Shown in pieces: positions 1,422 to 54,924 of a stretch of DNA of 64,000 nucleotides. Positions within the stretch are counted from its first letter, which is position 1, and the number at the start of each line of letters is the position of its first letter. The stretch comes from Sphyrna mokarran. Taxonomy: Eukaryota. The notes under the pieces are model-generated. The model was not told the origin of the DNA and did not search any database. It saw only the letters and a program-made list of their open reading frames with translations. The DNA lies in assembly GCA_024679065.1 (NCBI GenBank), contig JAGIQG010000004.1:54932001-54996000 (forward strand). Reading direction: 5' to 3'. The translations under genes and the position numbers were made by a program.

Positions 1422-1586
1422 CTAATCGTTTTCCGCCTCCGTATAGCCAGTCTTTTTTGCCCCATTTTGCTTCGTTCTCCGCAGTTGGGCATATTCAGTG
1501 CACGTTTCTTTAGCTTTGCCTTTGTCTGAGCCGGTCAACGCTACACGTGAGTATATCAGGTCATTACCGACTTTCCTTTGTTGCGT
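1422..1586 (-). CDS. Receptor A exon 7, terminal coding exon with ITIM 2 and ITSM-like motif (TQQRKVGNDLIYSRVALTGSDKGKAKETCTEYAQLRRTKQNGAKKTGYTEAEND*)
   Basis: Acceptor gaccttgcag. The phase-0 frame yields LIYSRV and TEYAQL, with TAG at 1424-1422. Not in the ORF track. Confidence 0.8.
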   Translation of the reverse strand, partial: TQQRKVGNDLIYSRVALTGSDKGKAKETCTEYAQLRRTKQNGAKKTGYTEAEND

Positions 1587-4500
1587 CTGCAAGGTCAATG
1601 TTTAAAAATATTGTTTACTGGTTGCATCACAAGTCCCATAGTCCGTTGTTCAAAAAAAATTCATCAGAAGGGCACGCAGATCATCTTATAACAGCATAGG
1701 GGCAAAGTCAACAGAGACATATTTCCTGCTTTATCGCATGGGTATTGATGTTACACTGGTGTATTTTATTTCTCTGATCGGTTACTCGGCCCCACCTGAG
1801 AATACTCACCTTGTCACTTTTATGCTTTGGAGTTTTGCTCAAATCTAATGCAGCATAATGCACAAATCCAGACGCATTCTCCTGTTTGTGCAAAACGGAA
1901 AACTTTTGTTACGTGGCTTGTTCATTGTGTTCATCAGTTTACACTAATTTTGGTCAAACATTGAGCGGATTAACTTGGAATCCAATAGACGTGCACAAAA
2001 TATGATTAATTTACATTTTCTTAGTGCGAATATTAAGACACTGTACACTTCTCACTCCTATACCAAATATTTAAACCCACCAATTTCACTTGACGTAATT
2101 GTTATGTAAATGTTGAAACGGGCGCCAGCTTCATTACGTACAGGTTATCTCCGATCTGAATGCATAACTGAATTGATGAAAACTTATTAAGTATATTTTC
2201 AACGAGATAAGCCGTTCTCTTTTTTAAACTGTTCTAAACAGTTCATCACTGTTTGACAATAAAACACTCGATGGCAAGTAAATTTCCACATCCGATTGAA
2301 ATGTGGAATCTCATTGAGACAAACCAAGATGCGGAGATGCTGGCGTTGGACTGGGATGGGTTCAGTAAGAAGTCTCACAGCACCAGGTTAACAATTGATC
2401 TGATGCAGGAGCAGTGTCCCGAAACTTCGTGATTCCAAAAACAAAACCTGTTGGAATTTAACCTGCTGTTGTGAGACCTGTTACTGAGACAAAATAATTA
2501 CATTTATTTAATGGGCTTAAAATGGTCTGACGTGATTATATTCACTTTCCATTACATCAATCTTCTCTAGTGTTTCAACAAACTGCCTGTAAAATGAATG
2601 AACTTACCAGTTCCTGACTCCTGTTTCCTTCTGTTACACGTCCGTCTTTACCTAGAAATAATTGAAATTTAATGATATTGAAAGAAAAACGTTCTGAAAA
2701 TGATTCTTACGGACCCGAAATGTTTAGTCTGTGTGCCTCTGCACAGGCGCTATCAGAAGTGTTGTCCAGGATTTTCGGTTTTTCAACTCTTTTTTAACAT
2801 CAGAGATTGCCTCACATCAGAGATGGCCAGAAAAAAAAAGCCCAAGGTAATTTTCAATTTCGCATTGTGCGGAAAATAATTGAAATCCTTACAAGGAACA
2901 GGGTGCTTTAAAATATTTCGCGGAAACTACGGTAATACTACACATTCTACCAGAAATCGGGCAAGTACCGAACATCAACAACAATAATATTGCGTGACTG
3001 AGCAGGCCCGAGGAGCCGTCTGGCCTACTAATGCTACTGTTTTTTATGTAGCACTGTGCAGAACGCTTCCCGGACCACAGCCACGGTTAAATCTAATTGT
3101 AACTCCACCACGGAGCGGTTTGAAAACTTATTTTGTGTCAGAGTGTATTTCATTCATCTGGTTGCAAAAGGAAATGTGTTTGGAAACATCTAGATAATGG
3201 TTTTCATTACTTCTTTCTATGTCCTAAAACATATTTTCAACAATTAGTGCTTCCTCAAAGCTATACAACTCTTTTCAACTTTATCTCCGAACTGTCTTTT
3301 CTATTGCGTTCCCCGGAAACTATCAGTAGTCCCAAAGGTATGTACGAAAATCAAGTGTTATCTTACCTTCATTCTTCAGCATTTGTTTCCGCTTCGCAAT
3401 GACGATCGCAAGCACGAGGAACGACAATGCAACCAGCGCAATCAAATAGTAATGTAATGTCGGGGTATTTTCTGCAAGATTAATTGTAACATGAGGTAAT
3501 ATTGGATACTAAATTAAAAAAGGCTCCAAGACAGTTTATTATGTAAACCATAGTGATGGTTGCACCAACCCCGCAGTGTTCAACGGAAATAGAACGTTTG
3601 ACTAAAAAGCTTGTTTGCAGCTAAGGATCTGCAGTATCTTCTGCCTCGAATATTTGACGCATTATTGATGAATCTACGAAGACTAAAAGGCTGGAGTCAC
3701 ATGTAGGCCAGACCGGGAAAGGGTGACTGATTTCCTTTCCTCAAAGTCATCCGAGAGCCAGATGGGTTTTTGCGATGAATTATAGTTTCATGATACATTA
3801 CTGAAACGAATGTTTAGTTCAGTATTTATTAATTGGTTTTAAATGTCATGATGTGACTTGAACCGATATCCTCACAGCTTTAGCCTGCACGTCTTGAGTA
3901 ATAATCTAGTGGCATTAAAATCTCGCCACTATCTTCCCTTCGAAGTATGCCATTGGAGATAACCGGACAACACCTAAATGATTCACCCTTAACTGCCGCC
4001 TGAAAGGGCCTATCAAGCTACTCCATTTAAGGGCAATTAGGGATAAAGAATAAATATTGGCCTAACGAGCGACGTTCACATTCCATGAAAGAGTTTACTT
4101 CAAAAATACACTGAACCGGATATACAGCGTTTTTACCGGTTGCAGTTTAGATGAGATTTATGAGACTGATTTCAGTTAAACCCATTTTGATCTGTAAGTA
4201 GGATGAGAAGCTGGTCATTTGGTTATTCCAAATCTCTGCACTGAATGGAACCAAACTTATAAAAATATTGAAATCTCACGGCAATCAGCCCTTGCGCAAA
4301 CAACGGGCCTTCAGATCAAAGCAATAGTTTTCAATCAAGAGGGGTTCGCAACGATCAAGTTTAAAGCATTTTCACCAAAATAAACAGAAAGCGAAAAAGA
4401 CTAATAATATTCAGTTAAGAAATATTAAACTAGAAAATTTGGACGAACACTTAGTATTGTTCCGTTAGAAATAGAGCAATTTGAAAGCAGATACGTATGG

Positions 4501-6875
4501 ATTTTTGTTCTTATATGGGATGTGAGCATTGCTGACGAAGCCAGCATTCCCATTCCCAATGCCTCTGAACAGAACGGCCTGCTAGAAAGTTGCAGGGGCA
4601 GTTAAGATTCAACCACGTTGCTCTGGCTCTGAAGTCACATGCAAACCTGGCTGAGTAAGGAGGGACGTCCTTGCCTGAAGGACGTTCGTGAGCCGGATTG
4701 GTTTTTTACCACAATCGATGATAGTTACATGGTCACCATCACTGAGACTAATCTAATACTCGGTAGCTACTAATTGAATTATGTTTCCAGAAGCTGCTCT
4801 TGTGGGATGCGAATCCATATCCTTAGATTGATTACTAGCCTGAGTGCATGCTGGCTATATAAATCGATTTCAACACATTTCATTAAATTCAGTGTAAAGG
4901 CACTTTAATATTTCTGTTGATATTTCCCGTGGCATTTCTGTGATTATTAATATGCATAAAACTTACGAAAAAAAAAACACTATGAATTCTACTGTAGGTT
5001 GCTTTTCTTTTAGAACAGTTTTTCCCCTACCTCGGTTTGGTTTAGGAATCGTGTACACCACAATAGCCGGAGTCTTGAGGGTGACATGAGATACCTGGCA
5101 TGTATAATTGACGCCTCTCGGTACAGGCTGATTCTCAACAAAAGTGCTGGAAACCTCATACAGTCCGTCTCTGTTCTGCACTTTACTGGTGTGTGTTCCT
5201 GATGCAGTTTCGACGCCATTTTTATACCAAGTGAGGGTGTAATTTTCCGGATAAAATGCAGCCGTTTCACAGACGAGGATCAGAGGCGCAGTCGAATTCC
5301 CTTCAGTTACCCTGGAGAAAAGATTCAGTGGGGTTGGGGCAGCTGCGGAACAGAAAATGAACAAAGTACCTGTGCACGGTTTGGAAAAATTAAATATACT
5401 TTTGACGTTCGGTTAATGTCCTCACTCACTGGCAATTCTTATTTCCTGCATTTGAATATTACACACAAGATCAATATACAACTAATCCGTATAAAGACCG
5501 GCATTCGATCAACGACAATCATTTTTGAATTCCCTGTGGGACACAGGGTGAGGTGATTTGTTAATCAACGTTCTGTTAAAGCGGCTAGAGAATTGAATGT
5601 TGATGAGATTGTCTTCTCGCAGAGTTTTTACATACTTTATATACAATGATATGACAGATTGACGAATAATATTCATATTCTTGATGATGAAATAAGCATT
5701 TCAATGCTTCTTTAAAGTCGCATTTGATTGAACAAACTACTTTCAGTTGAATCAGCCGAAGTTTCACCAGCAGAGCGTCTCTTGTTAAATTATAGGCAAA
5801 ATATTGCAGATGCTGCAATCTGAAATAGCCTCTCTGTGTTTATTTATTTATTAGAAAATTAGTGAACTGGCAGCGATGTATGTCTGAAACTCCAATCTGT
5901 TGAGTAAATCGATTTGGTCAAAAGTTAAATATTGAATATTTGAATACGTGCCGTATCGTTCTTTGACATTTACTTTAAGGAATACTGGTATTCATGGACA
6001 ATTAAAACTAAGCCAAAAGCTTTGCATATTTTTCTTGGGAATGGCCCACTAGTATAAAAGATTTTCAGTTAGTTTTACTTTAGGAATTCATTCTGAATGC
6101 CGCCAATATAAATTGACTTTATAGTTGTGATGTGTTTGATAAATATTACTAATATGTTCAGTACTCTCCGAGTGGCATTGCTGGTATAATTTTAACGCTG
6201 AGGACACGAATATACAACTAACATCGCGAAATATGTTAATAGACATGATTTCACTAAGAAAAAGAATGCACATTCCTGATTGTTGTGTTTGATGTATTAT
6301 GGTGATCTCGTTCGCCTGTATTTCAATCTTACCATGTACAATTAGATGCGATCCGGTTCCATTTCGTTGATCTATTCCCCGACGGATCACGGTACAATGG
6401 TAGATTCCAGAGTCTTGCAATTTCACATTTACTAAGCGAAAGAAACCGCTCACTTTATTTTCCACGCCAAAAGTTTTTCTCTTGTCTGGGCTTGAATGCA
6501 GGAATTCACTCTCACCATGTTTCCACCAGAATACCCGTACCCAGGATTGGGATTGAAAAATGGGGAATATACAGTAGAAGGTGATGTTTCCCCCTCTGGA
6601 TACAATCGCTTCGACTGGTGCTTGAGACACACTGAACGAAGTATGGTCCGCAACTGTCAGAAAGATAGACAGACACAGGTTAATTGCAGTAGATACAACA
6701 TAAATGTCGAAAAGTGAAAGCATAATCTAGAGAGAGGAAATAAGGTTCTTTAAATTGATATGAAAACTACTTCCTCGGAAGTTATTAATCAAAGTAACAT
6801 GGCAAGTGAAAAACTAGTACCTGCATGAATAATTCCTCGGAGGACCAAGCATAAAAGTGCTATGATCGTTGTCAT
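1422..6875 (-). CDS. Receptor A: SIRP/NITR-like VJ-C1 Ig-superfamily type I membrane receptor, inhibitory form (357 aa, 7 exons)
   Basis: Manual splice assembly: join(6875-6821, 6653-6333, 5342-5031, 3471-3367, 2651-2608, 1881-1810, 1586-1422). All introns are GT-AG, phases 1,1,1,1,0,0, 1074 nt open to TAG. Signal peptide, V domain, C1 domain, hydrophobic TM and tyrosine motifs VHYAAL, LIYSRV, TEYAQL. Every splice site is conserved in the paralogous copy. No transcript evidence available. Confidence 0.88.
1810..1881 (-). CDS. Receptor A exon 6, cytoplasmic, ITIM 1 (ENASGFVHYAALDLSKTPKHKSDK)
   Basis: Acceptor caaacag, consensus donor AAG|GTGAGT, 72 nt, phase 0-0. Confidence 0.82.
2327..2486. 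mobile_element. Short fold-back element derived from Penelope-like terminal repeats (intron 5 of receptor A)
   Basis: 29-nt imperfect inverted repeats at 2363-2391 and 2458-2486. The right arm resembles the terminus of the Penelope remnant at 37870-37958. Degenerate hammerhead core CTGATGC...GAAA. Confidence 0.6.
2608..2651 (-). CDS. Receptor A exon 5, cytoplasmic spacer (GKDGRVTEGNRSQEL)
   Basis: Acceptor tttctag, donor G|GTAAGT, 44 nt, phase 1->0. Same length in copy B. Confidence 0.78.
3367..3471 (-). CDS. Receptor A exon 4, transmembrane (ENTPTLHYYLIALVALSFLVLAIVIAKRKQMLKNE), uncharged
   Basis: Acceptor cttgcag, donor G|GTAAGA, 105 nt, hydrophobic stretch followed by KRK stop-transfer. 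Confidence 0.88.
3690..3937 (-). mobile_element. Deu-domain (SacSINE1-like) SINE fragment
   Basis: Reverse complement of the element at 12450-12802 (ctggagtcacatgtaggccagacc...ccagatgggtttt). Confidence 0.7.
4512..4855 (-). mobile_element. Deu-domain (SacSINE1-like) SINE
   Basis: gggcagttaagattcaaccac...ctgaagtcacatg...gtgagccggattggtttttt, same family as 12450-12802. Confidence 0.7.
5031..5342 (-). CDS. Receptor A exon 3, C1-set Ig domain
   Basis: Acceptor ttccgcag, donor G|GTAGG, 312 nt. Motifs LVCETAAFYP, LTWYKNG, NRDGLYEVSS, YTCQVSH. Lies within ORF 4963..5364. Confidence 0.95.
6333..6653 (-). CDS. Receptor A exon 2, V-set Ig domain with J-like G strand
   Basis: Acceptor tttctgacag, donor G|GTAAG, 321 nt. 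Motifs ITFYC, VFWW, QDSGIYHC, NGTGSHLIV. Lies within ORF 6088..6723. Confidence 0.95.
6821..6875 (-). CDS. Receptor A exon 1, signal peptide MTTIIALLCLVLRGIIHA
   Basis: ATG at 6875, hydrophobic core, 55 nt ending in phase-1 donor G|GTACTA. Confidence 0.85.
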
Positions 6876-10940: not shown

Positions 10941-11310
10941 AATGGTGCTAACATTATCTTGATGTTCTTTATAACTTTCCAGTCAATTGTCCTTTCTGGA
11001 CTTTAAAAGCTTAATTAAAGCATATGGTTCAATACCTAAGTCTGGTGCAAAAACATATTAATTTTGTTTATCGCGCGACATTTGCAGAAGCAACTAATTC
11101 AGCGCGTTCCGATTTTCGGAAGTTGACAGAATTTTGCAACAGGCAGTTTTTTTTTGCATTCTCGGTATTCCCGATTTCTATATTTTTTTCTGCAAATTAC
11201 TGTTAGTTTCATAATCATTGGTATAATTAGACTATCCTTTTATATTTGGATTAATGTGTTTTGAAGAGCTTTTTGCTCAAATTGATGAAGCCATTTATCA
11301 AAAGCAATTC

Positions 11311-11516
11311 CAGAATTATTGGAAACCAGACAGTTTAGTTCAGGAGACAGCCTTAATTGTGGGACAATTAACAAAAGCAAAACCAGAATTATTGGAAACA
11401 AGAGAAATTCGTTCAGAAGACAGTCTTAATTGTGCAACAATTAGCAAAAGAAAAACCAGAGTTATTAGAAACGAGACAGGTTAGTTCAGTAGACAGACTT
11501 AATTGTGAGACAATTA
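11311..11516 (+). repeat. 73-bp tandem repeat, about 2.8 diverged units
   Basis: Units start cagaattattggaaac at 11311 and 11384, with a diverged third start (cagagttattagaaac) at 11457. Confidence 0.9.
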
Positions 11517-12449
11517 AGGAATAATTAATTCATTAATAGAAATGCTAGGAATACCGCAAGTGTAATTTGGAAAAGAAAAATGTTATAATTATGAACAAAT
11601 CATTAACAGCTGCTAATTAATACAGTTTCTTAAAGTGCTGTGGGGAGAAAAATCTAGTGTACTTCTCAGGCCGCCGAGTAAAAAGAGATAATATGACTTC
11701 TTAATCTTATCTCGAAAGAATGAATAGGCACTTGATTAATGAGATGTTGAAAATGTGGGTAGTGAGGGAGAGACAGAGCTTTTGATGAATAAGCGTTGAA
11801 AGTTATTTTCTAAGTTTTTCGGAGTCGTCACTTCAGAACGTCGCCTTTGAAGGTGACACGAAATTTCTTCGATTGTTAAAGATAAGCTCTCTCCTCTTAT
11901 TACTATCAACGAATAGCATATTGCTATTAATTAGTACTTTGCCTTTTATCTTTCTGACGTTTTACCTTTTTCATAGTTAATAAACATGTTGTACTCGCCA
12001 TTTAGAGTGACCTTACTTCTGATATAGTTAAGTCGGTGGATTCTGATGCAATTTTTAAATGGGTGGTAATTGCAAACAAGTGATCCCCACAAATCTTAGA
12101 TCAGATAAATAACAAAAAATGTAATACTGCCTCTGCATGAAGAAGATTCCGAAGGGTACAGGAGACATCGCTTCACTCCGGACTGATTAAGAATTGCGTT
12201 GCCTTTTCCTAAAAGGCTTTGAAATAAGTTTAGTTTGAAGTCTCAACACATATATACTTCGTGTGATATCATTTATTTTATATTGTAGTCGAGAACAGCT
12301 TGCACAATATCTCTAAGCATTAGACCGTTGATTAGGCTACTTGGTGATTGCTGTTCCCACAACCATCCTGTTGTTTATTAAAAATGCTGTTAAAATCAAA
12401 GCATGTTGTGTTGATCGCTTTGGCAATAGACTAGCAAAATTGATAGTGT

Positions 12450-26253: not shown

Positions 26254-26596
26254 CAGAGTTGAGAAAAATGAGCAGCACGAGAGCACTGCATTTAGAAAAT
26301 TGCTGTCTCCTTCCCACCGCTTATACTACTTTTAATTCTACTACCCTGTTATCATCTGAAAAAAATTACACGTCAGCAAATAAATCAATCTATGGTAGAA
26401 GAAAATTAATGAATTTACTTCAACTCAAACAGAGTTGAGAAAAATGAGCAGCACGAGAGCAGTGCATTTAGAAAATTGCTGTCTCCTTCCCACCGCCTAT
26501 ACTACTTTTAATTCTACTAACCTGTTATCATCTGAAAAAAATTACACGTCGGCAAATAAATCAATCTATGGCAGAAGAAAATTAATGAATTTACTT
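26254..26596 (+). repeat. 176-bp direct tandem duplication, 2 copies
   Basis: cagagttgagaaaaatg at 26254 and 26430, about 5 mismatches. Confidence 0.95.
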
Positions 26597-38019: not shown

Positions 38020-40520
38020 AGAGCACAGAAAATAGAACATTACAGCGCAGTACAGGCCCTTTGGCCCTCGATGTTGTGCCGACCAGTGGCACCAATCTAA
38101 TGACTCTCTATCTAACCTATTCCAATGTTATCCATATGCTTATCCACTGACCATTTGAACGTCCTTAAAGTTGGCGAGTCCACAACTGCTGCAGGCAGGG
38201 CATTCCACGCCCTTACTACCCTCTGAATAAAGATCATACCTCTGACATCCGTCCTATAACTACCACCTCTTAATTTAAAGCTATGTCCCTTCGTGTTAGC
38301 CATCATCATCCAAGGAAAAAGGCTGTCACTATCCACCCTATCTAACCCTCTGACCATCTTGTATGCCTCAATTAGGTCACCTGATAACCTTCTTCTCTCT
38401 AATGAAAATAACCTCAAGTCCCTCAGCCTTTCCTCATAAGACGTTCCCACCATACCATGCAACATCCTGGTAAACCTCCTTTCCAATGCCTCCTCATCTT
38501 TATTATAATGCAGCGACCAGAACTGTATGCAATACTCCAAGTCCGGCCACACCAGAGTTTTGTACAGTTGCAACATGACCTCACAGCTCTGAAATTCAAT
38601 CTTCTACCAATAAAAGCTAACACACTGTACGACTTCTTAACAACCTGATCAACCTGGGTGTCAACTTTCAGGGATCTATGCACATGCACACCGAAATCTC
38701 TCTGCTCGTCGACACTACCAAGAATCCTTCCATTAGCCCTATATTCTGTACTCCTGTTCCTCTTACCAAAGTGAATCATCTCATACTTTTCCGTATGAAA
38801 CTCCATTTGTCACCTCTCAGCCCAGCTCTGCAGCTTATCTATGTCCCTCTGCAAACTGTAACATCCATCCTCACTGTCTACAACTCCTCTGACTTTGGTG
38901 TCGTCAGCAAATTTACTAACTCATCCTTCTACACCCTCATCTAAGTCACTTATAAAAATGACGAACAGCAGTGGCCCCAAAACAGATCCCTGAGGTACAC
39001 CACTTGTAACTGAACTCCAGGTTGAATATTTCCCATCAACAACCACCCCCTGTCTTCTATCAGCAAGCCAATTCCTATCCAAACTGCTAATTCACCCTCA
39101 ATCCCATGCATCTGCAATTTCTGCAGTAGCCTAACATGGGGAACCTTATCAAATGCTTAGCTAAAATCCATATACACCACGTTAACTGCCTTACCCTTAT
39201 CTACCTCTTTGGTTACCTTTTCAAAAAACTCAATAAGGCTTGTGAGGCACGACCTACCCTTCACAAAACCGTGTTCACTATCCCTAGTCAACCTTGTTCT
39301 CTCTAGATGACTATAAATCCTATCCCTTATAATACTTTCCAAAACTTTGAGAAGTTAGGCTCACCGGTCTATAATTCCCAGGGTGGTCTCTACTCCCCTT
39401 CTTGAACAAAAAGACAACATTTGCTACCCTCCAGTCTTCCGGCACTATATCTGTAGCAAATGACAGCATGAAGATTAAAGCCAAAAGCTCTGCAATCGCC
39501 CCCCTAGCCTCCCAGAGAATCCTAGGGTAAATCCCATCCGGTCCAGGGGACTTATCAATTTTCATACTCTCAAGAATTGCTAACACCTCCTTATGTATCT
39601 CAATCCCATCTCGTCTACAGCCCTGTATTTCATTATTCTCCTCGACTACACTGCCTTTCCCTGCGTGAATACTGACGAAAAATGCTCAGTCAGTGCCTCT
39701 CCTATCTCTTCAGGTTCCATGCACAACTTCCCACTGTTGTGACTGACTGGCCCTAATCTTACCCTAACCAATTTTTTATTCTTGACATACCTATAGAAAG
39801 CTTTAGGGTTCTCCTTGATCCTATCCGCCAAAGTCTTCTCATATCCTCTTCTAGCTCTTCTTAACTCTCTCTTTAGCTCCTTCCTGGCTAATTTATAACT
39901 CTCCAGTGCCCGAACTGAGCCTTCACATTTCATCTTTATGTAAGCCTCCTTTTTCCTCTTCAGCAGAGATTCAACTTCCTTAGTATACTACTGTTCCCTC
40001 CCTCGGTCACTTCCTCCATGCCTGACAGGTACATATTTATCAAAGACTCGCAGTAACTGCTCCTTGAATAATTTCCACATTTCAGATGTTCCCCGGCCTT
40101 GCAGTTTCCTACTTCAATCTACATATCCTAAATCTCACCTGATAACCTCATAATTACCTTTCCCCCAGCTATAACTTTTACCTTTCGGTATATGCCTATC
40201 CCTTTCCATCACTCAGGTAAATGTAACCGAATTGTGGTCACTATCACCAAAATGCTCACATACCTCCAAGTCTAACAACTGGTCTGGTTCATTACCCGGT
40301 ACCAAATCCAATATAGCCTCACCTCTTGTTGGCCTATCTACGTATTGTGTCATGAAAGCTTAGTGCAGGTATTGGACAAAAACTGACCCCTCTAATGTGC
40401 TTACACCATAGCTTTTCCAATCGATATTTGTAAAGTTAAAGTCCCCCATAAAACTACCCTGTTACTTTTGCTCCTATCCAGGATTATCTTTACAATCCTT
40501 TCCTCTACATCTCTGGAATT
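38020..40520 (-). mobile_element. CR1 (HER1-like) LINE, 2.5 kb, endonuclease end to 3' tail, disrupted
   Basis: ORFs 39646..39933, 39320..39586 (KSPGPDGIYPRIL, NYRPVSLTS), 39157..39342 (HGFVKGRSCLT), 38423..38806 and 38112..38576. Confidence 0.95.
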
Positions 40521-41521
40521 TATGTCATCCAATTCAGATTTCTGCAGCATCCTCAATTTGAAATGATCCTGTATTCGTGGTCCTGATTCATTAGTGATGT
40601 TCCTAAATTATGGCATTCTCTCCCTAATCCATTCCGCCTGCATAATATAGAGATCCAAGCGAAGATAACAAAAAACTATCTAACATTAAAGAGGCCATAG
40701 TTTTTTGCTGCACCAGCACTGATACTGGACAAACTATAACAGTTGTTATGCAAGACTAGCTCGTTTTCAGGGTGTTGCACTCAACAGAAAAATGTACTTC
40801 GTTGCAACAGAGATGAGCTAAGAGGCGTTTTCCTTACTTAGCCTTCCAAATCCACGCGACTCTAGCAATATTTAGCAACACGCGTTACTAATAGCAGAAC
40901 AAACCCACCAGCGCTTCAGTATACCTTTTCGAAGTGTTGACCTTTCCAATGCTGTTCATGAATCCCTACTTTGAATATTAAAAATCTTGCTAATCCCAGG
41001 AAGGTATCATAGACAGATTTCGTTGTTCACAGCCAACGGTGCTGTGGAGCGAGCACGTCAGCCTCCGGGGATTGTTCTGGAGTGAAACATTAATCTGGGC
41101 ACTACTGTTGATCAATTTAAGGATTTTCACTCCCAGTGTACATTGCTGTTTCTTTATAAATAAAAACTAATCCAGAAATCTGCCTGAAGGCAGAAAGCCA
41201 ACATATGCTCCCACTTGCATTCAAAGATACTTTGTCAATAAGTATCCACGGCCACTTCTAATTGCCATGGACGTTCGAGTCACCATATTTCCTTCTTTTT
41301 TATGTGTTTGCGCATAACGTTTTCAGAACATCTTTAGAATAATCATTACTGTGTTTCTTAAAGGGAATGCAAACTTCTCAAAAGATTCACTTATAATCGT
41401 CCAGTTATGTAGTAGGAAATATATTTTCACGTATTATTGATTCCCAAGTCCCATTTTATGGAGCAATCTGGCAGGAAGTTCGATGCCCAGTGGAATACGA
41501 ATGCAGAAATACCGAGCACTG

Positions 41522-41823
41522 CTCTGAGGCCTCGGGTTCGATTCCCACTATGGCCCATGAGAAACTTTGAATTCAATTGAAAAAAAAAATCTGGAATTCA
41601 AAAGCCAAATGATGACCAGGAAAGCATTTCGTTAAAAAAAAAACTGGTTCTCTAATGCTTTTCAGGGAAGGAAATGTGCTATTATTTCCATGCTTAGCTT
41701 GCATGCGACTTCAGATACACGCAATGCGTTTGACTTTTAACTCCCTCTGAAATGGTCTAGTAGGGTACTGAGAAGGGCAGCACATGCTAATCTGCTCAGC
41801 AAAGCCTAGATCCTAACAGAAAA
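41522..41823 (+). mobile_element. Deu-domain SINE
   Basis: B box gggttcgattccc, core ctggttctctaatgcttttcagggaaggaaat. Confidence 0.65.
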
Positions 41824-41835
41824 ATTATATCTGTG

Positions 41836-42790
41836 ATCAGTAATGATAGGCAATAGCATCTTCTTCATGATTATCCTCAATACCAGTGTCCCGCAAGGCT
41901 GTGTCCTGAGCCCTCCACTTTGCTCCTAATACATCTATGATTGTTTGGTCAAATTCCCCTCCAATTCGATTTTCACGTTTGCTGATGACACTAGCATAGT
42001 GGTCGGATCTCAAACAACGATGAGATAGAATATAGGACTGACTGAATTGGCGGAACAACCATAATCCTTCCCTCAATGTTAGTAAAATGAAGGAGAGAAT
42101 CATCGACTTCAGGAAGCTTAATGGAGAACATGCCCCTCTTGACAGCAACAGGGATGAAGTGGAAATCATTGAAAGCTTCAATTTTCTCGGTGGCTAAATC
42201 ACCAATGACCTATCCTGGACACTTGACACCAGCGCTATAGCTAAGAAAGCCCACCAACACCTCTACTTTCTCAGGGGTCTAAGGAAATTCAGCATGTCCG
42301 CTTCAACTCCACCAAATTTTGTAGATACACCAGAGAAAGCAACATTTCTGGATATATCACAACTTGATATGGCTCCTGCTCTGACTAAGACCTCAAGGCA
42401 CTAAAACGGGTCGTGAACGAAGCCCAATCCATCGCGCAAACTAACCTTCCATACATTGACTCTGTCTACACTTCCCACTCCCACGGAAAAGTAGCCAAGG
42501 AGCGTAATAATCAAGGACCCTATGCACCCAGGATGTACTCTCTTCCACAATTTTCCATTGGGAAAAAGATAAAAAGCCTAAGGTCATGTTCCAAAGGACT
42601 CAAGATCAGCTTCTTCCCCACTGCCATCGGACCTTTGAATAGACCTATTTTATATTAAGTTGACCTTTCTCGTCAGCCTAGATAGGACTATACTGCGACA
42701 TTTTGAAGCGTTATGCGTTGTTTCCTTAGGAACAACAAACAATGTTTTTCATTGTATACTAATACATGTGACAATAAAAGCTTAATTTAA
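41836..42790 (+). mobile_element. Rex1/Babar-like non-LTR retrotransposon 3' fragment
   Basis: IILNTSVPQGCVLSP, FTFADDT, SLNVSKMKE.IIDFRK and KKAHQHLYFLR remnants with stops and frameshifts. Confidence 0.8.
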
Positions 42791-42911
42791 AAGCAAGGTC
42801 TTCAAATGGAAGTCCCTTGCCTGTATCTTTACTAATTGGATGACAACATGATGTAGTGGATTTTTTTTTGTAAAACTTTTCCGTCATCATTTCCATCTCC
42901 AAATGTACGAT

Positions 42912-43804
42912 ATATAGTTGGAGGATAAGATTCAGCTTAATAAAGACCATTCCTCACCAAGTGCCCAGAATTTGTTTAAAGTTGACTTTTATGGCTGATT
43001 TTGGCAATGTGCTGAAGCTGTAATTTCTGAGTCACTGAGATCAGTGTTACAGTATTTTAGTATATAGAAAAATGCAATACGTATGGGAAATTTAAACTTA
43101 ACTTTCCTACATCTTGTGTAATCATTAGTAAGAAAAGGACAGACAATGTGTGCAGGAATAAGCCTTCGATCATGTAAAGGAATTAATTAAATAATTAAAT
43201 GCCAATACACGAAACAGTTACATTTTACCGTGGTAACGATAGTGCTGTTTAGAAAGGTGCAGTAACATGATTAAAACGGGACATCCGTTGCACGTGTGTG
43301 TCGCTATAATTATACATTGAAACACACGATGTAAAATAACTGCTGCTTTTGAATACTTGATACATCCAGTGTGTTGCAATGTTGCTACATTTAGAAATGA
43401 TACGTTCGCATTTCGAGAAGACCGAGAGAAATACGTCCCCTGCCAAGTTCCAATCGTTAGTACGCCTTGTCAATATTTAGCAACGTATAGGTGTAGCTCA
43501 AAGCAGAAAGTTACAAACCCCCAGCAAATAGTTTACACGCTATCAGCTTATCCAGATAAACGGCCACACATTGTCTGTCCTTTTCTTACTAATGATTGCA
43601 CAAGATTTAGGAAAGTTAACTTTAAATTTCCCATACGTATTGCACTTTTCTATATGCTAAAATACTGCAATACTGATCCAGTGACTCAGAAATTACAGCT
43701 TCAGCACATTGTCCAAAATCAGCCATAAAAGCCAACTTCAAAGAAATTCTGGGCACTTGGTGAGGAATGCCCCTTATTAAGCTGATTTTATCCTCCTACT
43801 ATAT
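42912..43804. repeat. ~240-bp inverted repeat (arms 42912-43152 and 43565-43804, spacer ~410 bp)
   Basis: aagaaaaggacagacaatgtgtg versus cacacattgtctgtccttttctt, and cattcctcaccaagtgcccagaattt versus aaattctgggcacttggtgaggaatg. Confidence 0.95.
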
Positions 43805-44962
43805 TTTTTACATACCGTAATAGCCACTATTTGGGTTAATTTAGCGTCAAAATTATTTATACTACTTTGTTTCCATATTGAGTCAACAATTGTTTGTCAG
43901 GTAAGAAAATTAAATGTTAGGTAAACCAAAGCATTATGACAGTTGAACAGTTGCCCATTTACTTGCATTTTTCAGGATCCATCTCTTTCCAGATAAATGT
44001 TTCGTCGTCAGCCTAACCAAACGGATCAAACCCCAACAGGTCAAAAAAAAAAATGAACATGGCTTCTTCTGTGGAAGTATTTGAAGAAATAAATAAGACA
44101 ACAGAGAAAGAAGTTGCAGAAAATGCCGACTGCCTGGAGTAGAAAATGACAGTCTATCGATATAGGAGAATGGCGCTTGGATAAAGAATACATACATTTT
44201 GTTGCAAAATGGAATTCGATGCATATCCATAAAGGAAACTCTGATTGCTATGGGGAAAGAATCGGGATGGGAATAATTGGGCAACGCTGTCAAATTTCCA
44301 GCACGGGTCAAACGGTCACTTTCTCAGATACAGGATTCCACAATTCGACATGGTGTCATGTAGAAATAGATGTTTGTAAAGCAAGATACAACTCGAACCT
44401 ACTTTCAGTAAATCGATAGGGAAATTCAAGTATTCAGCTTCACCCGTTTTCTATCAGGTGCATCAGCTGAACTGGATACAACGCACTGGCACGTATTCAA
44501 CGTAATAAGGGGACGTATGAATCTACACCTTTTTTTCTGTTTTACTGAACAAAGTTAATACTGATCGTTAATTTGTAAGGAGTCCTAGAAAAACGATTTT
44601 TAAAAAAATTTACTTTACTATACAGATAATTAGGTACCACGGGACACAATGTATCGTTGTAGCCGAAAGAACATATTTGTCATTGTTTTTAAAATGTACT
44701 CATTGAACAATACCGTATGACAAGACAGTTTTTTTTAAGCAACGAAAATAAACTTCTGGAAGTAACTGAGTAGCAAGTGACTACCACGTACTGCATTATC
44801 TGATAGACATGATATCATAGAGCACAAACACTCCTGGTGTCGGTACTGCAGAGAGACGCGATCAGCGTACTCCAGAGAAGTGAATTCTGCGTCGAAATTC
44901 AATTGCTAATTGTTTTTCTTCTCCGTATGGCCAGACTCTTTTGCTCCATTTTGTTTCATTCT

Positions 44963-45070
44963 TCACAGTTGGGCATAATCAGTGCATCTTTCGTTAGCTT
45001 TGCTGTTGTCTGAACTGGTCAACGCTACACGTGAGTATATCAAGTCATTACCGATTTTCCTTTGTTGAGT
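44963..45070 (-). other. Receptor B exon 7 homolog, relic ITIM/ITSM frame (TQQRKIGNDLIYSRVALTSSDNSKANERCTDYAQL*), 3' UTR in the full splice form
   Basis: Acceptor gaccttgcag intact, paralog of 1586-1479, TGA where copy A has CGG. Confidence 0.75.
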
Positions 45071-45302
45071 CTGCAAGGTCAATGTTTGAAAATATTGTTT
45101 ACTGGTTACATCGCAAGTCCATGGTCCGCTGTTCAAATAAATTCATCAGAAGGGCACACAGATCATCTTATAGACAGCATAGGGGTAAAGTCAACAGAGA
45201 CATATTTCCTGCTTTATCGCATGGGTGTTAATGTTACAATGGTGTACTTTCTTTCTCTGATCGGTTACTCGGCCCCACCTAAGCATACTCACCTCGTCAC
45301 TT

Positions 45303-45356
45303 TTATGCTTTGGAGTTTTGCTCAAATCTACTGCGGCATATTTCAGACTCATTTTC
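45303..45356 (-). CDS. Receptor B exon 6 coding part, frameshifted (ENESEICRSRFEQNSKA*)
   Basis: Acceptor ccaagcag. The exon is 64 nt (45356-45293) versus 72 nt in copy A. TAA at 45305-45303, donor GAG|GTGAGT retained. Confidence 0.75.
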   Translation of the reverse strand, partial: ENESEICRSRFEQNSKA

Positions 45357-48300
45357 CTGCTTGGGCAAAAAGGAAAATTTTTGTTAAGCGGCTGGTTCAA
45401 TGTGTTCACTTGTTTAAAATAATTTCGATCAAACATTGAGTGGATTAACCTGGGATCGAATAAACCTGCGCAAAATATAATTAACTTACAATTACCTCAG
45501 CGCGAATATTAGGGCACTCGACACTTTACACTCTTATCCCAAATGTTTAAACCCGCCAATTTTAATCGACATAATTGTTACACGAATATCGAAACAGGCG
45601 GTAACTTCATTACGTAGAACTTATTTTCGATCTGAATGAATAAATGGATCGATGAAAGCTTAGTAACTGTATTTTCAACGAGATAAGCTGTTCTCTTTTC
45701 TAAACGTGTATCGCTGTTTGCCAATAAAGCAACTGTATTTCCACATCCGATTAAAATGTGGAATTTCATTGAGGGAAAAACAAGATGCGGAGATGCCGGC
45801 GTTAGACTGGGGTGGGTGCAATAAGAAGTCTCGCAGTACCAAGTTAAAAATTCAACTGATGCAGGAGCTGCGCACTGAAACTTCGAGATTCCAAAAAAAA
45901 AACCCTTTGGACTTTAACCTGGTGTTGTGAGACCTTTTACTGAAACAAAACAAATACATTTATTAAGTGGACTTAAACTGATCTGATTATATTAAATTTC
46001 CACTATATCAATCTTTCTTGGTGTTTCAACAAACTGCCTGTAAATGAATGAACCTACCAGTTCCTCGCTCCGTTTCCCTCCTGTTACACTTCCGTTTTTA
46101 TCTGAAAACAAGTGAAATTTAAAGATATTCAAATATAAAAGTACTGTAGAAGAATCTTACGGACCCGAAATATTAACTCTGTGTGCTTCTATACAGGCGC
46201 TACCAGAAGTGTTGACTTTATCCAGGATTTTCTATTTTTCAACTCATTTTTCACATCAGAGATTGGAAAGATAAGTCTATGGTTAAAGAAAAACCCAAGA
46301 GGATTTCTAATTTTGTAATGTGCGGAAAATAATTGAAATCCTTAGAACCAGCAGGGTACTTTAAAATATTTCGTGGGAGCAATGGTAATATTTCGCATCG
46401 TATGAGAAGGCGGGCAAGTGCCCAACATCAGCGACGGTAATATTGCGTGACGGAGCAGACCCGAGGAGCCATCTGGCCTTCTACTGCTCCTGTTTGTTTT
46501 GTAGCTCTCTGCACAGCCGTTCTCGGACCAGAGCCACAGTTAAAGCTAATTGTGACTCCACCACGCAGCGGTTTGGAAACTAATTTTGTGTGGGACTGCA
46601 TTTTGTTCATGTGGTTCCAAAACGAAGTATATTTGGAAACATCTAGATAACTGTTTTTATCTTTATTTTATCTCCATGTCTTAAAACATATTTTCAACAA
46701 TTAATGTTTCCTCAACATCATACGACTCTTTACAACTTTAATTCCGAACTGATCACCAGTTTACAGTAATTTTGGTCAAACATTGAGTGGATTAAACTAG
46801 GATCGAATAGACGTGCACAAAATATAATTAATTTACATTTACCTAAGTACGAATAGTAAGACACTCTAAACTATCAGTCGTGCCAAGGATATGTACAAAA
46901 ATCAAGTGTTATCTTACCTTTATTCTTTAGCATTTGTTGCTGCCGCGTAATGACAATCGCAAACACGAGGAATAATCCAACTAGTGCGCACACTCGAATC
47001 GAATAGTAAAGTAATATCGAGATATTTTCTGCAAGATTAATTGTGACATGAGGTAATAGTGGATATTAAATAAAAAAGGGCTCCAAGATATTTATTATTT
47101 AAACTATAGTGATGGTTGCACTAATCCTGCATTGTTCAACGGAAATAGAACGTTTGAATAAAAAAACTTGTTTGCAGCTAAGTATCTACAATATCTTCTT
47201 ATTCGAACACTTGGCCATTATTGGTTAATCTACGAAGACTAAAAGGCTGGCGTGATGTTTAGGCCAGACCGGGAAAGGGTGACTGATTTCCTTTCCTAAA
47301 AGTTATCAGAGAGCCAGGTCGGTTTTTGCGTCAGAATTATAGTTTCATCCCACATTACTAAAACGAATGTTTAGTTCAACATTTATGAATTGGTTTGAAA
47401 TGTCATGATGTGATTTGAAGCAATATCCTCATAGCTTTAGCCTGCACGTCTTGAGTAATAGGCTAGTGGCATTAAAATCTTGCCACCATCTTTCCTTAGT
47501 AGTATGCCATTGGAGATAATCGGACAAAAACCAAATGGTTCACCCTTAGTTGCTGCCTGAAAAGGCCTATTAAGCGACTCCGTTTAAGGGCAATTAGGCA
47601 TAAATAATAAATAATGACCTAGCCAGTGACCTTCACATTCCATGGAAGAGTTTACTTTTAAAAAATCGGTGAACCGGAAATACAGCATTTTTGCCGGTTA
47701 GAGTTTAAATAAGATTTATGAAACTGCTTTCAGTTAAACCCATCATGATCTGTAAGTAGGATGAGAAGATGGTCACTTGATTATTCCAAAGCTCTGCACT
47801 GAACATAACTGAACGTGTAACAATATCGAAATCCCATGGCAATCAGCCCTTGAGCAAACAATGGGCCTGCCGATCATAACAATAGTTTTCAAGCAAGAGG
47901 AGTTCGCAACGATCAAGTTTAAAGCATTTTCAACAAAATAAACAGAAAGTGAAAAAGACTAATAATATTCAGGTTAAGAAATATTACATTAGAAAATATG
48001 AATGGTTGCTTGATATTGTTCCGTTAGAAATCGAGGAATTTGAAAGGAAACATGTTTGGATTTTTGTTCTTATTTATGAGATGTGAGCTTTGCTGACGAA
48101 GCCAGCATTGCCCATTCCCAATTGTTCCTGAACAAAATGGCCTGCTAGAAAGTTGCAGGGGCAGTTAAGTTTCAACCACGTTACTCTGGCTCTGAAGTCA
48201 CAGGTAAACCTGGCTGACTAAGGAGGACAGATTTCCTTCGCTGAAGGACATTCGTGAATCGGATTGGTTTTTAAAACAAACGATCATAGTTACATGGTCA

Positions 48301-50462
48301 CCATTAATAAGATTTACCTGATATCCCATAGCTATTAATTGAATTATGTTTCCAGAAGCTGCTCTTGTGGGATGCGAATCCATGTCCTTAGATTGATTAC
48401 TAGCCTGAGTGCATGGCTGGCTATATAAATCGATTTCAAACATTTCATTAAATTCAGTGTAAAGACACTTTAATGTTTCTGTTGATATTTCCCGTGACAT
48501 TTCCGTGATTATTAATATGCGTAAAACTTACGAAAAAAATCACTATGAATTCTACTGTAGGTGGCTTTCCTTTTAGAAACAGTTTTTCCCCTACCTCGGT
48601 TTGGTTTAGGAATCGTGTACACCACAATAGCCGGAGTCTTGAGGGTGACATGAGATACCTGGCATGTATAATTGACGCCTCTCGGTACAGGCTGATTCTC
48701 AACAAAAGTGCTGGAAACCTCATACAGTCCGTCTCTGTTCTGCACTTTACTGGTGTGTATTCCTGATGCAGTTTCGACGCCATTTTTATACCAAGTGAGG
48801 ATGTAATTTTCCGGATAAAATGCAGCCGTTTCACAGACGAGGATCAGAGGCGCAGTCGAATTCCCTTCAGTTGTCCTGGAGAAAAGATTCAGTGGGCTTG
48901 GAGCCGCTGCGGAACAGAAAATGAGCAAAGTACTGTGCACGGTTTGGAAAAATTAAATATACTTTTGACGTTCGGTTAATATTCTTACTCATTCGCAATT
49001 CCTATTTCCTGCATTTGAATATTACACACAAGATCAATATACAACTAATCCATATAAAGACCGGCATTCGATCACCTACAATCATTTTTGAATTCCCTGT
49101 GGGACACAGGGTGAGGTGATTTGCTAACCAACGTTCTGTTAAAGCAGCTGGAGAATTAAATCTTGATGAGACAGTGGTCTCGCTGAGTTTTTACGTGTTT
49201 TATATACAATGACATGACAGATTGACGAATAATATTCATATTCTTGATGATGAAATAAACGTTTTAATGCTTCTTTAAAGCCGCAGCTTGATATTTGATT
49301 AGACAAACTACTTCCATTTAAATCGGCCGAAGTTTCACTAGCAGAGCCTCTCTGTTAAATTATAGGCAAAATGTTGCAGATGCTGGAATCTGAAACAGCA
49401 TCTCTGCGTTGTTTATTTATTTATTTGAAAATTAGTGAACTGGGAGCCATGTATGTCTGAAACTCCAAACGGTTGAGTAAATAGATTTGGTCCACAGTTA
49501 AACATTAAATATTTGAATACGTGCCGTATCGTTCTTTGAAACTTACTTTAAGGAATACTGGTATTCATGGACAATTAAAACTAAGCCAAAAGCTTTGCAT
49601 ATTTTTCTTGGGAATGGCCCATTAGTATAAAAGATTTTCAGTTAGTTTTACTTTAGGAATTCATTCTGAATGCAGCCAATATAAATCTGGTGCATAAATT
49701 GATTTTATAGTTGTGATGTGTTTGATAAATATTACTAATATATTCAGTACTCTCCGAATGGCATTGCTGGTATATATTTAATGCAGAGGATACGAATATA
49801 CAGCTAACTTATCGCCAAATATGTTCATAGACATGATTTCACTAAGAAAAAGAATGCACATTCCCATTGTTGTGTTTGATGTATTATGGCGACCTCGTTC
49901 GCCTGTATTTCAGTCTTACCATGTACAATTAGATGCGATCCGGTTCCATTTCGTTGATCTATTCCCCGACGGATCACGGTACAGTGGTAGATTCCAGAGT
50001 CTTGCAATTTCACATTTACTAAGCGAAAGAAACCGCTCACTCTATTTTCCACACCAAAAGTTTTTCTCTTGTCTGGGCTTGAATGCAGGAATTCACTCTC
50101 ACCATGTTTCCACCAGAATACCCGTACCCAGGATTGGGATTGAAAAATGGGGAATATACAGTAGAAGGTGATGTTTCCCCCTCTGGATACAATCGCTTCG
50201 ACTGGTGCTTGAGACACACTGAACGAAGTATGGTCCGCAACTGTCAGAAAGATAGACAGACACAGGTTAATTGCATTAAATACAACATAAATGTAGAAAA
50301 GTGGAAGTGTAATCTAGAGAGAGGAAATAAGGTTCTTTAAATTGATATGAAAACTACTTCCTCGGAAGTTATTAATCAAAGCAACATGGCAAGTGAAAAA
50401 CTAGTACCTGTAAGAATAATTCCTCGGAGGACCAAGCACAAAAGTGCTATGATCGTTGTCAT
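45303..50462 (-). CDS. Receptor B: paralogous VJ-C1 receptor, putative activating form (298 aa, TM arginine, tyrosine-free short tail)
   Basis: join(50462-50408, 50240-49920, 48906-48595, 47028-46918, 46101-46058, 45356-45303), all GT-AG, 897 nt to TAA. An 8-nt deletion in exon 6 relative to copy A shifts the frame. Could alternatively be a decaying gene. Confidence 0.82.
45783..45942. mobile_element. Paralog of the Penelope-derived fold-back element
   Basis: Homologous to 2327-2486. Confidence 0.6.
46058..46101 (-). CDS. Receptor B exon 5, cytoplasmic spacer (DKNGSVTGGKRSEEL)
   Basis: Acceptor ttttcag, donor G|GTAGGT, 44 nt. Confidence 0.76.
46918..47028 (-). CDS. Receptor B exon 4, transmembrane with Arg (ENISILLYYSIRVCALVGLFLVFAIVITRQQQMLKNK)
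   Basis: Acceptor cttgcag, donor G|GTAAGA, 111 nt. In-frame +9 and -3 nt indels versus copy A. Confidence 0.88.
47245..47495 (-). mobile_element. Deu-domain SINE fragment (copy B)
   Basis: Paralog of 3690-3937. Confidence 0.7.
48072..48420 (-). mobile_element. Deu-domain SINE (copy B)
   Basis: Paralog of 4512-4855. Confidence 0.7.
48595..48906 (-). CDS. Receptor B exon 3, C1-set Ig domain
   Basis: 312 nt, LVCETAAFYP...YTCQVSH, four amino-acid differences from copy A. Lies within ORF 48512..48940. Confidence 0.95.
49920..50240 (-). CDS. Receptor B exon 2, V-set Ig domain with J-like G strand
   Basis: 321 nt, same splice sites as copy A, one amino-acid difference (VENR vs VENK). Overlaps ORF 49825..50217. 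Confidence 0.95.
50408..50462 (-). CDS. Receptor B exon 1, signal peptide MTTIIALLCLVLRGIILT
   Basis: ATG at 50462, 55 nt, phase-1 donor, paralog of 6821-6875. Confidence 0.85.
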
Positions 50463-53600: not shown

Positions 53601-53779
53601 TTTTACAACAGGCAGTTTTTTTTTGCATTCTCGGTATTCCCAATTTCTATTTTTTTTCTGCAAATTTTTGATGGTTTCATAATCATTAGTGTCATGAAAC
53701 TATAATTTTGTAGTTTGAATTAATATGTTCTGAAGAACTTTTTGCTCAAATTGATGAAGCCATTTAACAAAAGCGATTC

Positions 53780-53985
53780 CAGAATTATTGGAAACCAGAC
53801 CGTTTAGTTCAGGAGACAGCCTTAATTGTGGGACAATTAACAAAAGCAAAACCAGAATTATTGGAAACCAGAGAAGTTCGTTCAGAAGACAGTCTTCATT
53901 GTGCAACAATTAGCAAAAGAAAAACCAGGGTTATTAGAAACGAGACAGGTTAGTTCAGGAGACAGACTTAATTGTGAGACAATTA
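53780..53985 (+). repeat. 73-bp tandem repeat (copy B)
   Basis: Paralog of 11311-11516. Confidence 0.9.
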
Positions 53986-54924
53986 AAGAATAATTGTTCA
54001 TTAATAGAAATGCTAGGAAGACCGGAAGGAAGACCGGAAGTGTAATTTTGAAAAGAAAACTTTCTTTTATAATTATGAACAAATCATTAACAGTTGCTTA
54101 TTAATACAGTTTCTTAAAATGCTGTGGAAGTAAAAATCTGGTGTACTTCTCAGGCCACTGAGTAAAAAGAGATAATATGACTTGTTAATCTTATCTAGAA
54201 AGAATGAATAGGCACTTGATTAATGAGATGCTGAAAAATGTGGGCAGTGAGGGAAAGACACAGCTTTTGACGGATAAGCGTTGAAAGTTATTTTCTAAGT
54301 TTTTCGGAGTCGTCACTTCAGAACGTCGCCTTTGAAGGTGTCACGAAATTTCTTCGATTGTTAAAGATAAGCTCTCTCCTCTTATTACTATCAACGAATA
54401 GCATATTGCTATTAATTAGTACTTTGCCTTTTATCTTTCTGACGTTTTACCTTTTTCATAATTAATAAACATGTTGTACTCGCCATTTAAAGTGACCTTT
54501 CTTCCAATATAGTTAAGTCTGTAGATTCTGATGCGATTTTTAAATGGATGGTAATTGCAAACAAATGATCCCTACAAATCTTAGATCAGATAAATAAAAA
54601 AAATGTAATACTGCCTCTGCATGAAGAAGATTCCGAAGGAGACGTCGCTTCACTCCGAACTGATTGAGAATTGCGTTGCTTTTTCCTAAAAGGCTTTGAA
54701 ATAAATTTGAATTTGAAGTCTCAACACATATATATTTCGTGTGATATCATTTATTTTATATTATACTCGACAACAGCTTGCGCAACATCTCTAAGCATCA
54801 GACCGTTGATTAGCTTACTTGGCGATTGCTGTTCCCACAACCATCCTATTGTTTATTAAAAATGCTGTTAAAGTCAAAGCATGTTGTGTTGATCGCTATA
54901 ACTTCGGCACAATACTGACAGTGT

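Follow-up and report, generated by a model that had tools for sequence, protein, structure and literature searches.

Several described receptor systems resemble the pair of genes reported here. KIR are receptors for MHC class I built from C2-type domains, and SIRP-alpha and SIRP-beta1 have V plus C1 domains, the former with a four-tyrosine inhibitory tail and the latter being its short partner with a charged transmembrane (TM) segment. According to excerpts of PMC2213150, the activating KIR of hominoids arose by a TM charge together with a stop in the membrane-proximal ITIM, and the ITIMs of macaque KIR3DH were removed by a frameshift. Opposing pairs typically homogenise their ligand domains, as excerpts of PMC3210942 describe for NKG2A/C, KLRI1/2, PIR-A/B and Ly49. 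PMC10751288 and PMC12227049 deal with non-rearranging VJ-C1 genes, and their excerpted parts describe no ITIM/Arg pairs.

The window analyzed here is a stretch of 64,000 nucleotides from Sphyrna mokarran (contig JAGIQG010000004.1, positions 54,932,001 to 54,996,000). It contains a tandemly duplicated unit of ∼43 kb (positions 1-21985 correspond to 43240-64000 at 82-90% identity), and each unit carries one minus-strand receptor gene, the two being tandem V-C1-TM receptors termed copy A and copy B. The exons of both (leader, V, C1, TM, c1, c3 and c4) were set by GT-AG edges and homology, and the two large exons in each copy were assigned by Pfam to a V-set and a C1-set domain. A search of the window by tblastn with 15 relatives revealed no third gene of the family, and the remaining long open reading frames resemble what we take to be LINE reverse-transcriptase fragments. 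A 73-nt tandem repeat (3.1 copies) was present in both units (11295-11517 and 53764-53986), and a 176-nt near-perfect tandem duplication was found between them (26254-26596).

Copy A (1422..6875, minus strand) is composed of the leader (6875-6821), V (6653-6333), C1 (5342-5031), TM (3471-3367), c1 (2651-2608), c3 (1881-1810, 72 nt) and c4 (1586-1422) exons, and its predicted protein of 357 amino acid residues has a TM segment of 25 uncharged residues and a tail of 102 residues, which contains four tyrosines and three ITIM/ITSM motifs (VHYAAL in c3, LIYSRV and TEYAQL in c4). In copy B, also on the minus strand, the leader exon with its ATG (50408..50462), the open V-set exon (49920..50240, 3 of 321 nt different from copy A), the open C1-set exon (48595..48906, 7 of 312 nt different), the TM exon (46918..47028, 111 nt) and c1 (46058..46101, 44 nt as in copy A) are followed by a c3 of 64 nt that is frameshifted at the first ITIM (45293..45356) and by the last exon c4 (44906..45070), now predicted to be 3′ UTR. 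If spliced like copy A, copy B would encode 298 residues with a tail of 41 residues and no tyrosine. A possible frame-neutral 15-nt exon, c2 (45919..45933, minus strand), is probably unused, given its weak donor, its position inside a very high-copy repeat and a homolog spacing that fits without it. The short repeat in question (45882-46078, in the c1-c3 intron) occurs in both copies, with a summed depth of 381,087 in the public sequencing run X1. In the TM-c1 intron of copy B, a 123-nt piece (46750-46872) is a copy of the intron just upstream of c3, without the acceptor; it is 86% identical to 1928-2049 of copy A and 82% to 45403-45525 of copy B, and it is missing at the corresponding place in copy A.

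Copies A and B are thus neighboring paralogs with near-identical ligand-binding domains, as in paired receptors; copy A combines an ITIM/ITSM tail with an uncharged TM segment, and copy B has a TM arginine, with the loss of the ITIM holding only if c3 is spliced as in copy A. The pair would follow the route of the activating KIR (KIR2DS/3DS) and KIR3DH, from inhibitory to activating through a positive TM charge and ITIM loss, but copy B differs from these in having V plus C1 domains, an arginine rather than a lysine, and a genomic indel rather than a point stop or a lost exon. It shares with NKG2A/C, KLRI1/2, PIR-A/B and Ly49 the near-identical ligand-binding exons, the divergent TM segment and tail, and, as predicted, an arginine without ITIM in the activating member, whereas folds and lineages differ, the cases in the excerpts of PMC3210942 being all mammalian. 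With SIRP-alpha/SIRP-beta1 it has in common V plus C1, a four-tyrosine tail and a predicted short partner with a charged TM segment, and many relatives are labeled ‘tyrosine-protein phosphatase non-receptor type substrate 1-like’ in RefSeq; however, A and B have one C1 domain, not the two of the V-C1-C1 architecture of SIRP. The V domain of A and B ends in a J-like GxG within one exon and is followed by C1, a likeness to NKp30/NCR3, UrIg, UrIg2 and PRARP, but NKp30/NCR3, an MHC-linked receptor with a TM arginine, has a single V domain without the C1 that A and B carry, and UrIg2 has three or more C domains.

The searches ranked UrIg2, SIRP-alpha, antibodies and B7-type proteins by sequence and fold without clear separation. 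UrIg2 was the top PDB sequence match (E 1.5e-18), and a SIRP-alpha chain (E 3.4e-16) was no better than antibody chains (E 3.8e-16). A structure model of the nearest homolog, Mustelus asterias protein P0002, together with both fold searches, supported V plus C1 at the level of the model and did not name a family, and SIRP was absent among the fold-search matches listed. From its predicted features, the A/B pair would work like a SIRP-alpha/beta or a KIR pair, which makes it a functional counterpart and not an assigned member of either family.

The original prediction held that an 8-nt deletion turned the ITIM tail of copy B into a short tyrosine-free one. The codons that it compared (TCT GGA TTT GTG CAT TAT GCT in copy A, TCT GAA A TAT GCC in copy B) were found in the sequence, and the net change around 45341-45344 is indeed -8 nt (64 versus 72 nt), although it is not one clean deletion, as about two substitutions adjoin it. 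With the acceptor orthologous to that of copy A, translation goes out of frame at the first ITIM as proposed and reaches a TAA (45305-45303) 10 nt upstream of the c3 donor. Because the indel lies on a run of A, and the removal of a single base would leave an in-frame, ITIM-like motif (SEYAAV), an assembly error that added an A after an in-frame 9-nt deletion was considered. This explanation is hardly credible and is largely refuted by run X1 (Logan contigs; its kind was guessed as DNA, the library not being on record). A contig of 518 nt (45301-45818, depth 17.6) matched copy B with no other letters and no gaps, bridged the indel by more than 31 letters on each side, and was accompanied by no indel at the site among 12 listed of 13 rows. 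Since single contigs from elsewhere in the genome had depths of about 17-20 in X1, 17.6 is a single-locus depth. The identity of the contig with copy B at this depth means that the indel is present in DNA, in one run and as presence only: X1 is possibly the source of the window itself, and contigs drop variants, so that presence is shown and not homozygosity or frequency. Sequencing error, which would have undone the prediction, is therefore largely set aside. X1 was the one match when public sequencing runs were searched for the stretch, with no RNA run among the matches. Over 48860-49336 and 48640-49033, 32 of the 40 listed variants of X1 against copy B equal copy A and 8 of 40 equal neither copy, and the depth of X1 over the C1 exon is ∼3 times the single-locus depth; probably a third paralog lies outside the window, or the X1 individual differs from that of the window.

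The descent of copy B from an ITIM-bearing ancestor was also borne out. In outgroup homologs, among them those of Heptranchias and Heterodontus, the motif is VHYAAL, VHYVAL or LHYTAL and its spacing is that of copy A, and the relics LIYSRV (45043-45026) and TDYAQL (44983-44966) can still be read in the ancestral frame of c4 of copy B. The TM segment of copy B was found to contain an arginine (codon CGA, 46994..46996, minus strand) that is included in the best hydrophobic windows of both 19 and 21 residues. At the aligned position, Mustelus P0002 and Heptranchias P0005 and P0006 have Pro, P0007 and P0011 have Leu and P0004 has Ala, and the arginine is regarded as derived because of the Pro in P0002, P0005 and P0006. 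As read from these alignments, the ancestral state is an ITIM and no TM arginine. Inside the helix, copy B has also lost one codon relative to the inferred ancestor, which leaves 16 uncharged residues after the arginine, and three codons are missing from the TM exon of copy A at the place of the arginine, among them that of a Cys conserved in many relatives. Unique changes in the signaling half numbered 14 in copy A and 17 in copy B.

The two copies have diverged very unevenly. Their nucleotide identity is 99.1% in V and 97.8% in C1 against 76-89% in TM and tail, with 10 differences in 633 nt of the V and C1 exons (3 in 147 synonymous sites) and 25/105, 9/44 and 23/165 differences in the TM exon, c1 and c4, respectively. 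The synonymous rate of V plus C1 is below that of the V-C intron, with its 70 differences in 987 positions (p = 0.014), which argues for gene conversion rather than selection alone; the near-identity of the ectodomains thus points to gene conversion, as judged from the substitution pattern. A second patch may lie in the c3-c4 intron (45071-45292 and 1587-1809), where the copies differ at 15 of 221 positions (93% identical) and the flanking introns at 100 of 560 (upstream) and 51 of 267 (81-82% identical; p about 5e-5). Local conversion may have refreshed part of the relic region there; c4 itself is not homogenised between the copies.

Taken together, we consider, with a probability of roughly 0.6, that copy B, with its genuine frameshift and new TM arginine, encodes the activating partner of the inhibitory copy A. 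The frameshift gains its likely activating meaning because the TM arginine is also found in copy B. The product would be a predicted V-C1 receptor of 298 residues with a 41-residue tyrosine-free tail that signals via a putative ITAM adaptor. In this mechanism, c3 would be spliced in through the A-like acceptor, the mRNA would escape nonsense-mediated decay (NMD) with its stop 10 nt from the last junction, the arginine would pair with an acidic TM residue of an adaptor of the CD3-zeta/FcR-gamma type, and gene conversion would keep both ectodomains on the same ligand.

The tyrosine-free tail of the original prediction was obtained (41 residues, no Tyr), but only with splicing as in copy A, and the splice sites were therefore compared. 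The c3 donor of copy B (GAG/GTGAGT) is strong, its acceptor has 15 of 20 pyrimidines compared with 13 of 20 in copy A, and an in-frame competing AG of copy A has been lost. TTAAC (45383..45387, minus strand), which matches the branch-point consensus by motif only, has its A 28 nt before the c3 acceptor; it is missing at the same place in copy A. Alternative AGs had been proposed to keep the shifted frame, and this was true of those 3 nt upstream and 9 nt downstream, but when 15 AG positions of copy B were scanned, beginning 160 nt upstream and continuing through the whole exon, three (45484, 45391 and 45307) restored the ancestral frame, and the first two of these rebuilt an ITIM-like LKYAAV. 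The tail exons all join in phase 0, so that skipping c3 is frame-neutral as well and leaves LIYSRV and TDYAQL in frame. Copy B might then be mainly a dual-function receptor, comparable to KIR2DL4 or the bifunctional rat Ly49, with the TM arginine, an ITIM and a C-terminal ITSM in one protein, and bifunctional intermediates are known from excerpts of PMC2213150 and PMC3210942. The gene model of Mustelus P0002, the nearest homolog, has no c3, and in c4 of copy B the fourth tyrosine is lost while ITIM and ITSM are intact up to a B-only TGA (44965-44963) directly after the ITSM. We regard such a receptor as unlikely nonetheless. The c3 acceptor of copy B is at least as strong as that of copy A, 8-10 of 20 positions are pyrimidines at the rescuing AGs, which are also located upstream of the best branch-point motif (TTAAC is downstream of 45391), and among 16 relatives with a TM Arg or Lys none had a long tail or two motifs. 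The intact c4 motifs may also owe something to the A-derived conversion patch, though c4 itself was not homogenised. Changes in c4 polarized against Mustelus comprised 9 B-only and 5 A-only (p = 0.42), and pN/pS was 0.50 up to the ITSM (11 changes) and 0.91 after it, on small counts; dN/dS and lineage counts are compatible with relaxed and constrained evolution alike.

An activating copy B further requires a stable mRNA. In excerpts of PMC7310861, the 50-nt rule operates in zebrafish, and NMD was not triggered in cultured zebrafish cells by a stop located 6 nt upstream of the last junction (citing Wittkopp 2009); EJC/upf1 mutants showed a rise for only 3.5-8% of the genes whose 3′ UTR intron lies <50 nt from the stop, such residual NMD being clearest at ≥36 nt in human cells. 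The stop of copy B, 10 nt before the c3/c4 junction, favors the predicted escape from NMD on this analogy, which depends on c4 being the last exon, as it is placed from copy A. The 3′ end itself was found to be altered. Copy A has four AATAAA within 0.9 kb (1239, 1154, 748 and 549), and all four are changed in copy B, on whose strand no canonical AATAAA or ATTAAA was found from c4 to 39780 (39780-44970, 5.19 kb), the position of its first canonical hexamer. At the window density 7.3 hexamers would be expected against the 0 observed (Poisson P ∼0.0007; a post hoc value that is blind to local composition). AGTAAA, a variant poly(A) signal, stands in the homologous place of one copy A AATAAA (44614..44619, minus strand) and may serve as the poly(A) signal of copy B; if it is unused, a UTR of more than 5 kb could trigger decay.

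Copy B could accordingly be fading or poorly expressed, as a null allele or as an activating receptor on its way out, with a long 3′ UTR that lowers or destroys its mRNA. The frameshift, the nonsense codon in c4 and the loss of the poly(A) hexamers can all be read as decay, the intact ectodomain exons could be explained by conversion and not selection, the stretch was found in one run only, and activating receptors are short-lived according to excerpts of PMC2213150. This outcome appears rather unlikely, for the leader, V, C1, TM and c1 exons of copy B retain open frames and intact splice sites, none of the three length changes within or close to its TM exon shifts the frame, AGTAAA is kept at the homologous place, and the lesions hit signaling motifs, alongside an arginine at the activating position of the family.

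The adaptor is a further step on which the activating reading depends. A TM arginine couples NKp46 and NKp30 to CD3-zeta/FcR-gamma (excerpts of PMC6514059). In an excerpt of PMC4016189, a 2014 screen reported no FcR-gamma in sharks, and excerpts of PMC2213150 trace the adaptors of activating receptors only to bony fish; our literature search found no paper on shark adaptors, and none of six adaptor/receptor terms occurred in one supplement file of PMC3964593, a part of that source. Copy B could in that case be an expressed, non-signaling decoy that competes with copy A for ligand, its arginine lying at the membrane surface without a bound adaptor, and the 2014 screen and the failure to show any shark adaptor agree with this. 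We consider a decoy very unlikely, because the best hydrophobic windows include the arginine and its spacing is the one of 16-17 residues common to the short-tailed members of the family.

The place of the pair within this family was analyzed with its closest proteins, which were from cartilaginous fish. The first was Mustelus asterias P0002 (76% identical in V and 87.5% in C1); the V-C1-TM architecture is common to A, B and named shark, ray and chimaera proteins, and the RefSeq names in the family are SIRPA-like or tapasin-related-like. A, B and P0002 formed a supported group in the ectodomain and signaling-half trees. In the signaling-half tree the branching order of A, B and Mustelus was not resolved, which leaves the duplication undated relative to the split from Mustelus. 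The profile searches yielded 23 proteins and then at least 150 representatives. We examined 116 proteins (the best 110 ids minus one turtle protein, plus five cluster members and A and B), dropped 40 (8 longer than 500 residues, 7 without a C1 end and 25 without a TM segment) and removed duplicates, which left 70 besides A and B. The Arg/Lys type was defined by an Arg or a Lys that precedes the cytoplasmic edge by 12-18 residues. Among these best-ranked proteins, a tail of more than 60 residues was found in 0 of 16 of the Arg/Lys type versus 40 of 54 others, and two tyrosine motifs in 0 of 16 versus 28 of 54, with one motif in 3 of the 16; these counts come from automatic gene models of related proteins, and the rows are not independent, so that p-values computed on them exaggerate the support. 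Short tails also occurred in 14 rows without Arg. Among 35 hand-picked cartilaginous-fish proteins, a long tail was present in 0 of 14 of the Arg type versus 18 of 21 others. The split between Arg and tail was robust for run-length cut-offs up to 19 and eroded from 20.

Two kinds of Arg-type TM segment were observed. The first ends in Asp-His (P0017, P0021, P0041, P0060, P0063 and P0084) and was found in Heptranchias, Heterodontus, Chiloscyllium and Scyliorhinus, and by inference in Callorhinchus (P0017). The second is inhibitory-like with an Arg beside the conserved Cys (P0003, P0012, P0024, P0167 and P0054). The arginine of copy B lies one column further out than in the second kind, which argues for an independent origin. 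In Mustelus, P0165 (with an ITIM) and P0012 (with an Arg and a 13-residue tail) are 98% identical in the ectodomain and 47% in the TM region. In rays, P0024, P0166 and P0167 (Arg type) against P0010 form further ITIM/Arg pairs, and the tail of the ray Arg-type proteins still begins like c1 but ends soon afterwards. No short protein resembling the TM segment and tail of P0002 was found among 11 candidates. On an ectodomain tree (FastTree, 58 rows, with 4 near-duplicates and rows without the V motif omitted and up to 4 Arg labels set by eye), the Arg rows did not cluster: 12 changes were needed for 16 Arg rows, compared with a shuffled mean of 14.0, and 54 of 500 shuffles were as low. This lack of clustering fits repeated origin and recombination alike.

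We propose, tentatively and at somewhat less than even odds, that cartilaginous fish, from chimaera to rays and sharks, possess a so far undescribed family of paired receptors made up of non-rearranging VJ-C1 proteins. Six of these proteins would represent an activating TM type of old origin (Arg, 16 residues, Asp-His), and inhibitory copies would in addition have been freshly converted several times, copy B being one such case with readable ITIM relics. ITIM/Arg pairs of this family were not found described in the open-licence literature; other papers, such as one on shark NCR3 genes, may cover the family.

The two-step switch of TM charge and ITIM loss is already known from primate KIR, and A/B is likely a shark instance of it. 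The indel alone would be an ordinary way of losing an ITIM, and if copy B is silent or skips c3, it is a minor lesion of a paralog. Together with the arginine and the homogenised ectodomain, it makes a clean and testable case of a shark receptor switched from inhibition to activation. Few innate receptor pairs have been described in sharks, and the question of their adaptor is unsettled. The few residue differences between the ectodomains of A and B offer a ready pair for a hunt for ligand and adaptor. If the family-wide reading is true, it requires an ITAM adaptor for the Arg-type receptors in sharks, and the KIR-type cycle of birth and loss of activating receptors would extend to the deepest split of the jawed vertebrates.
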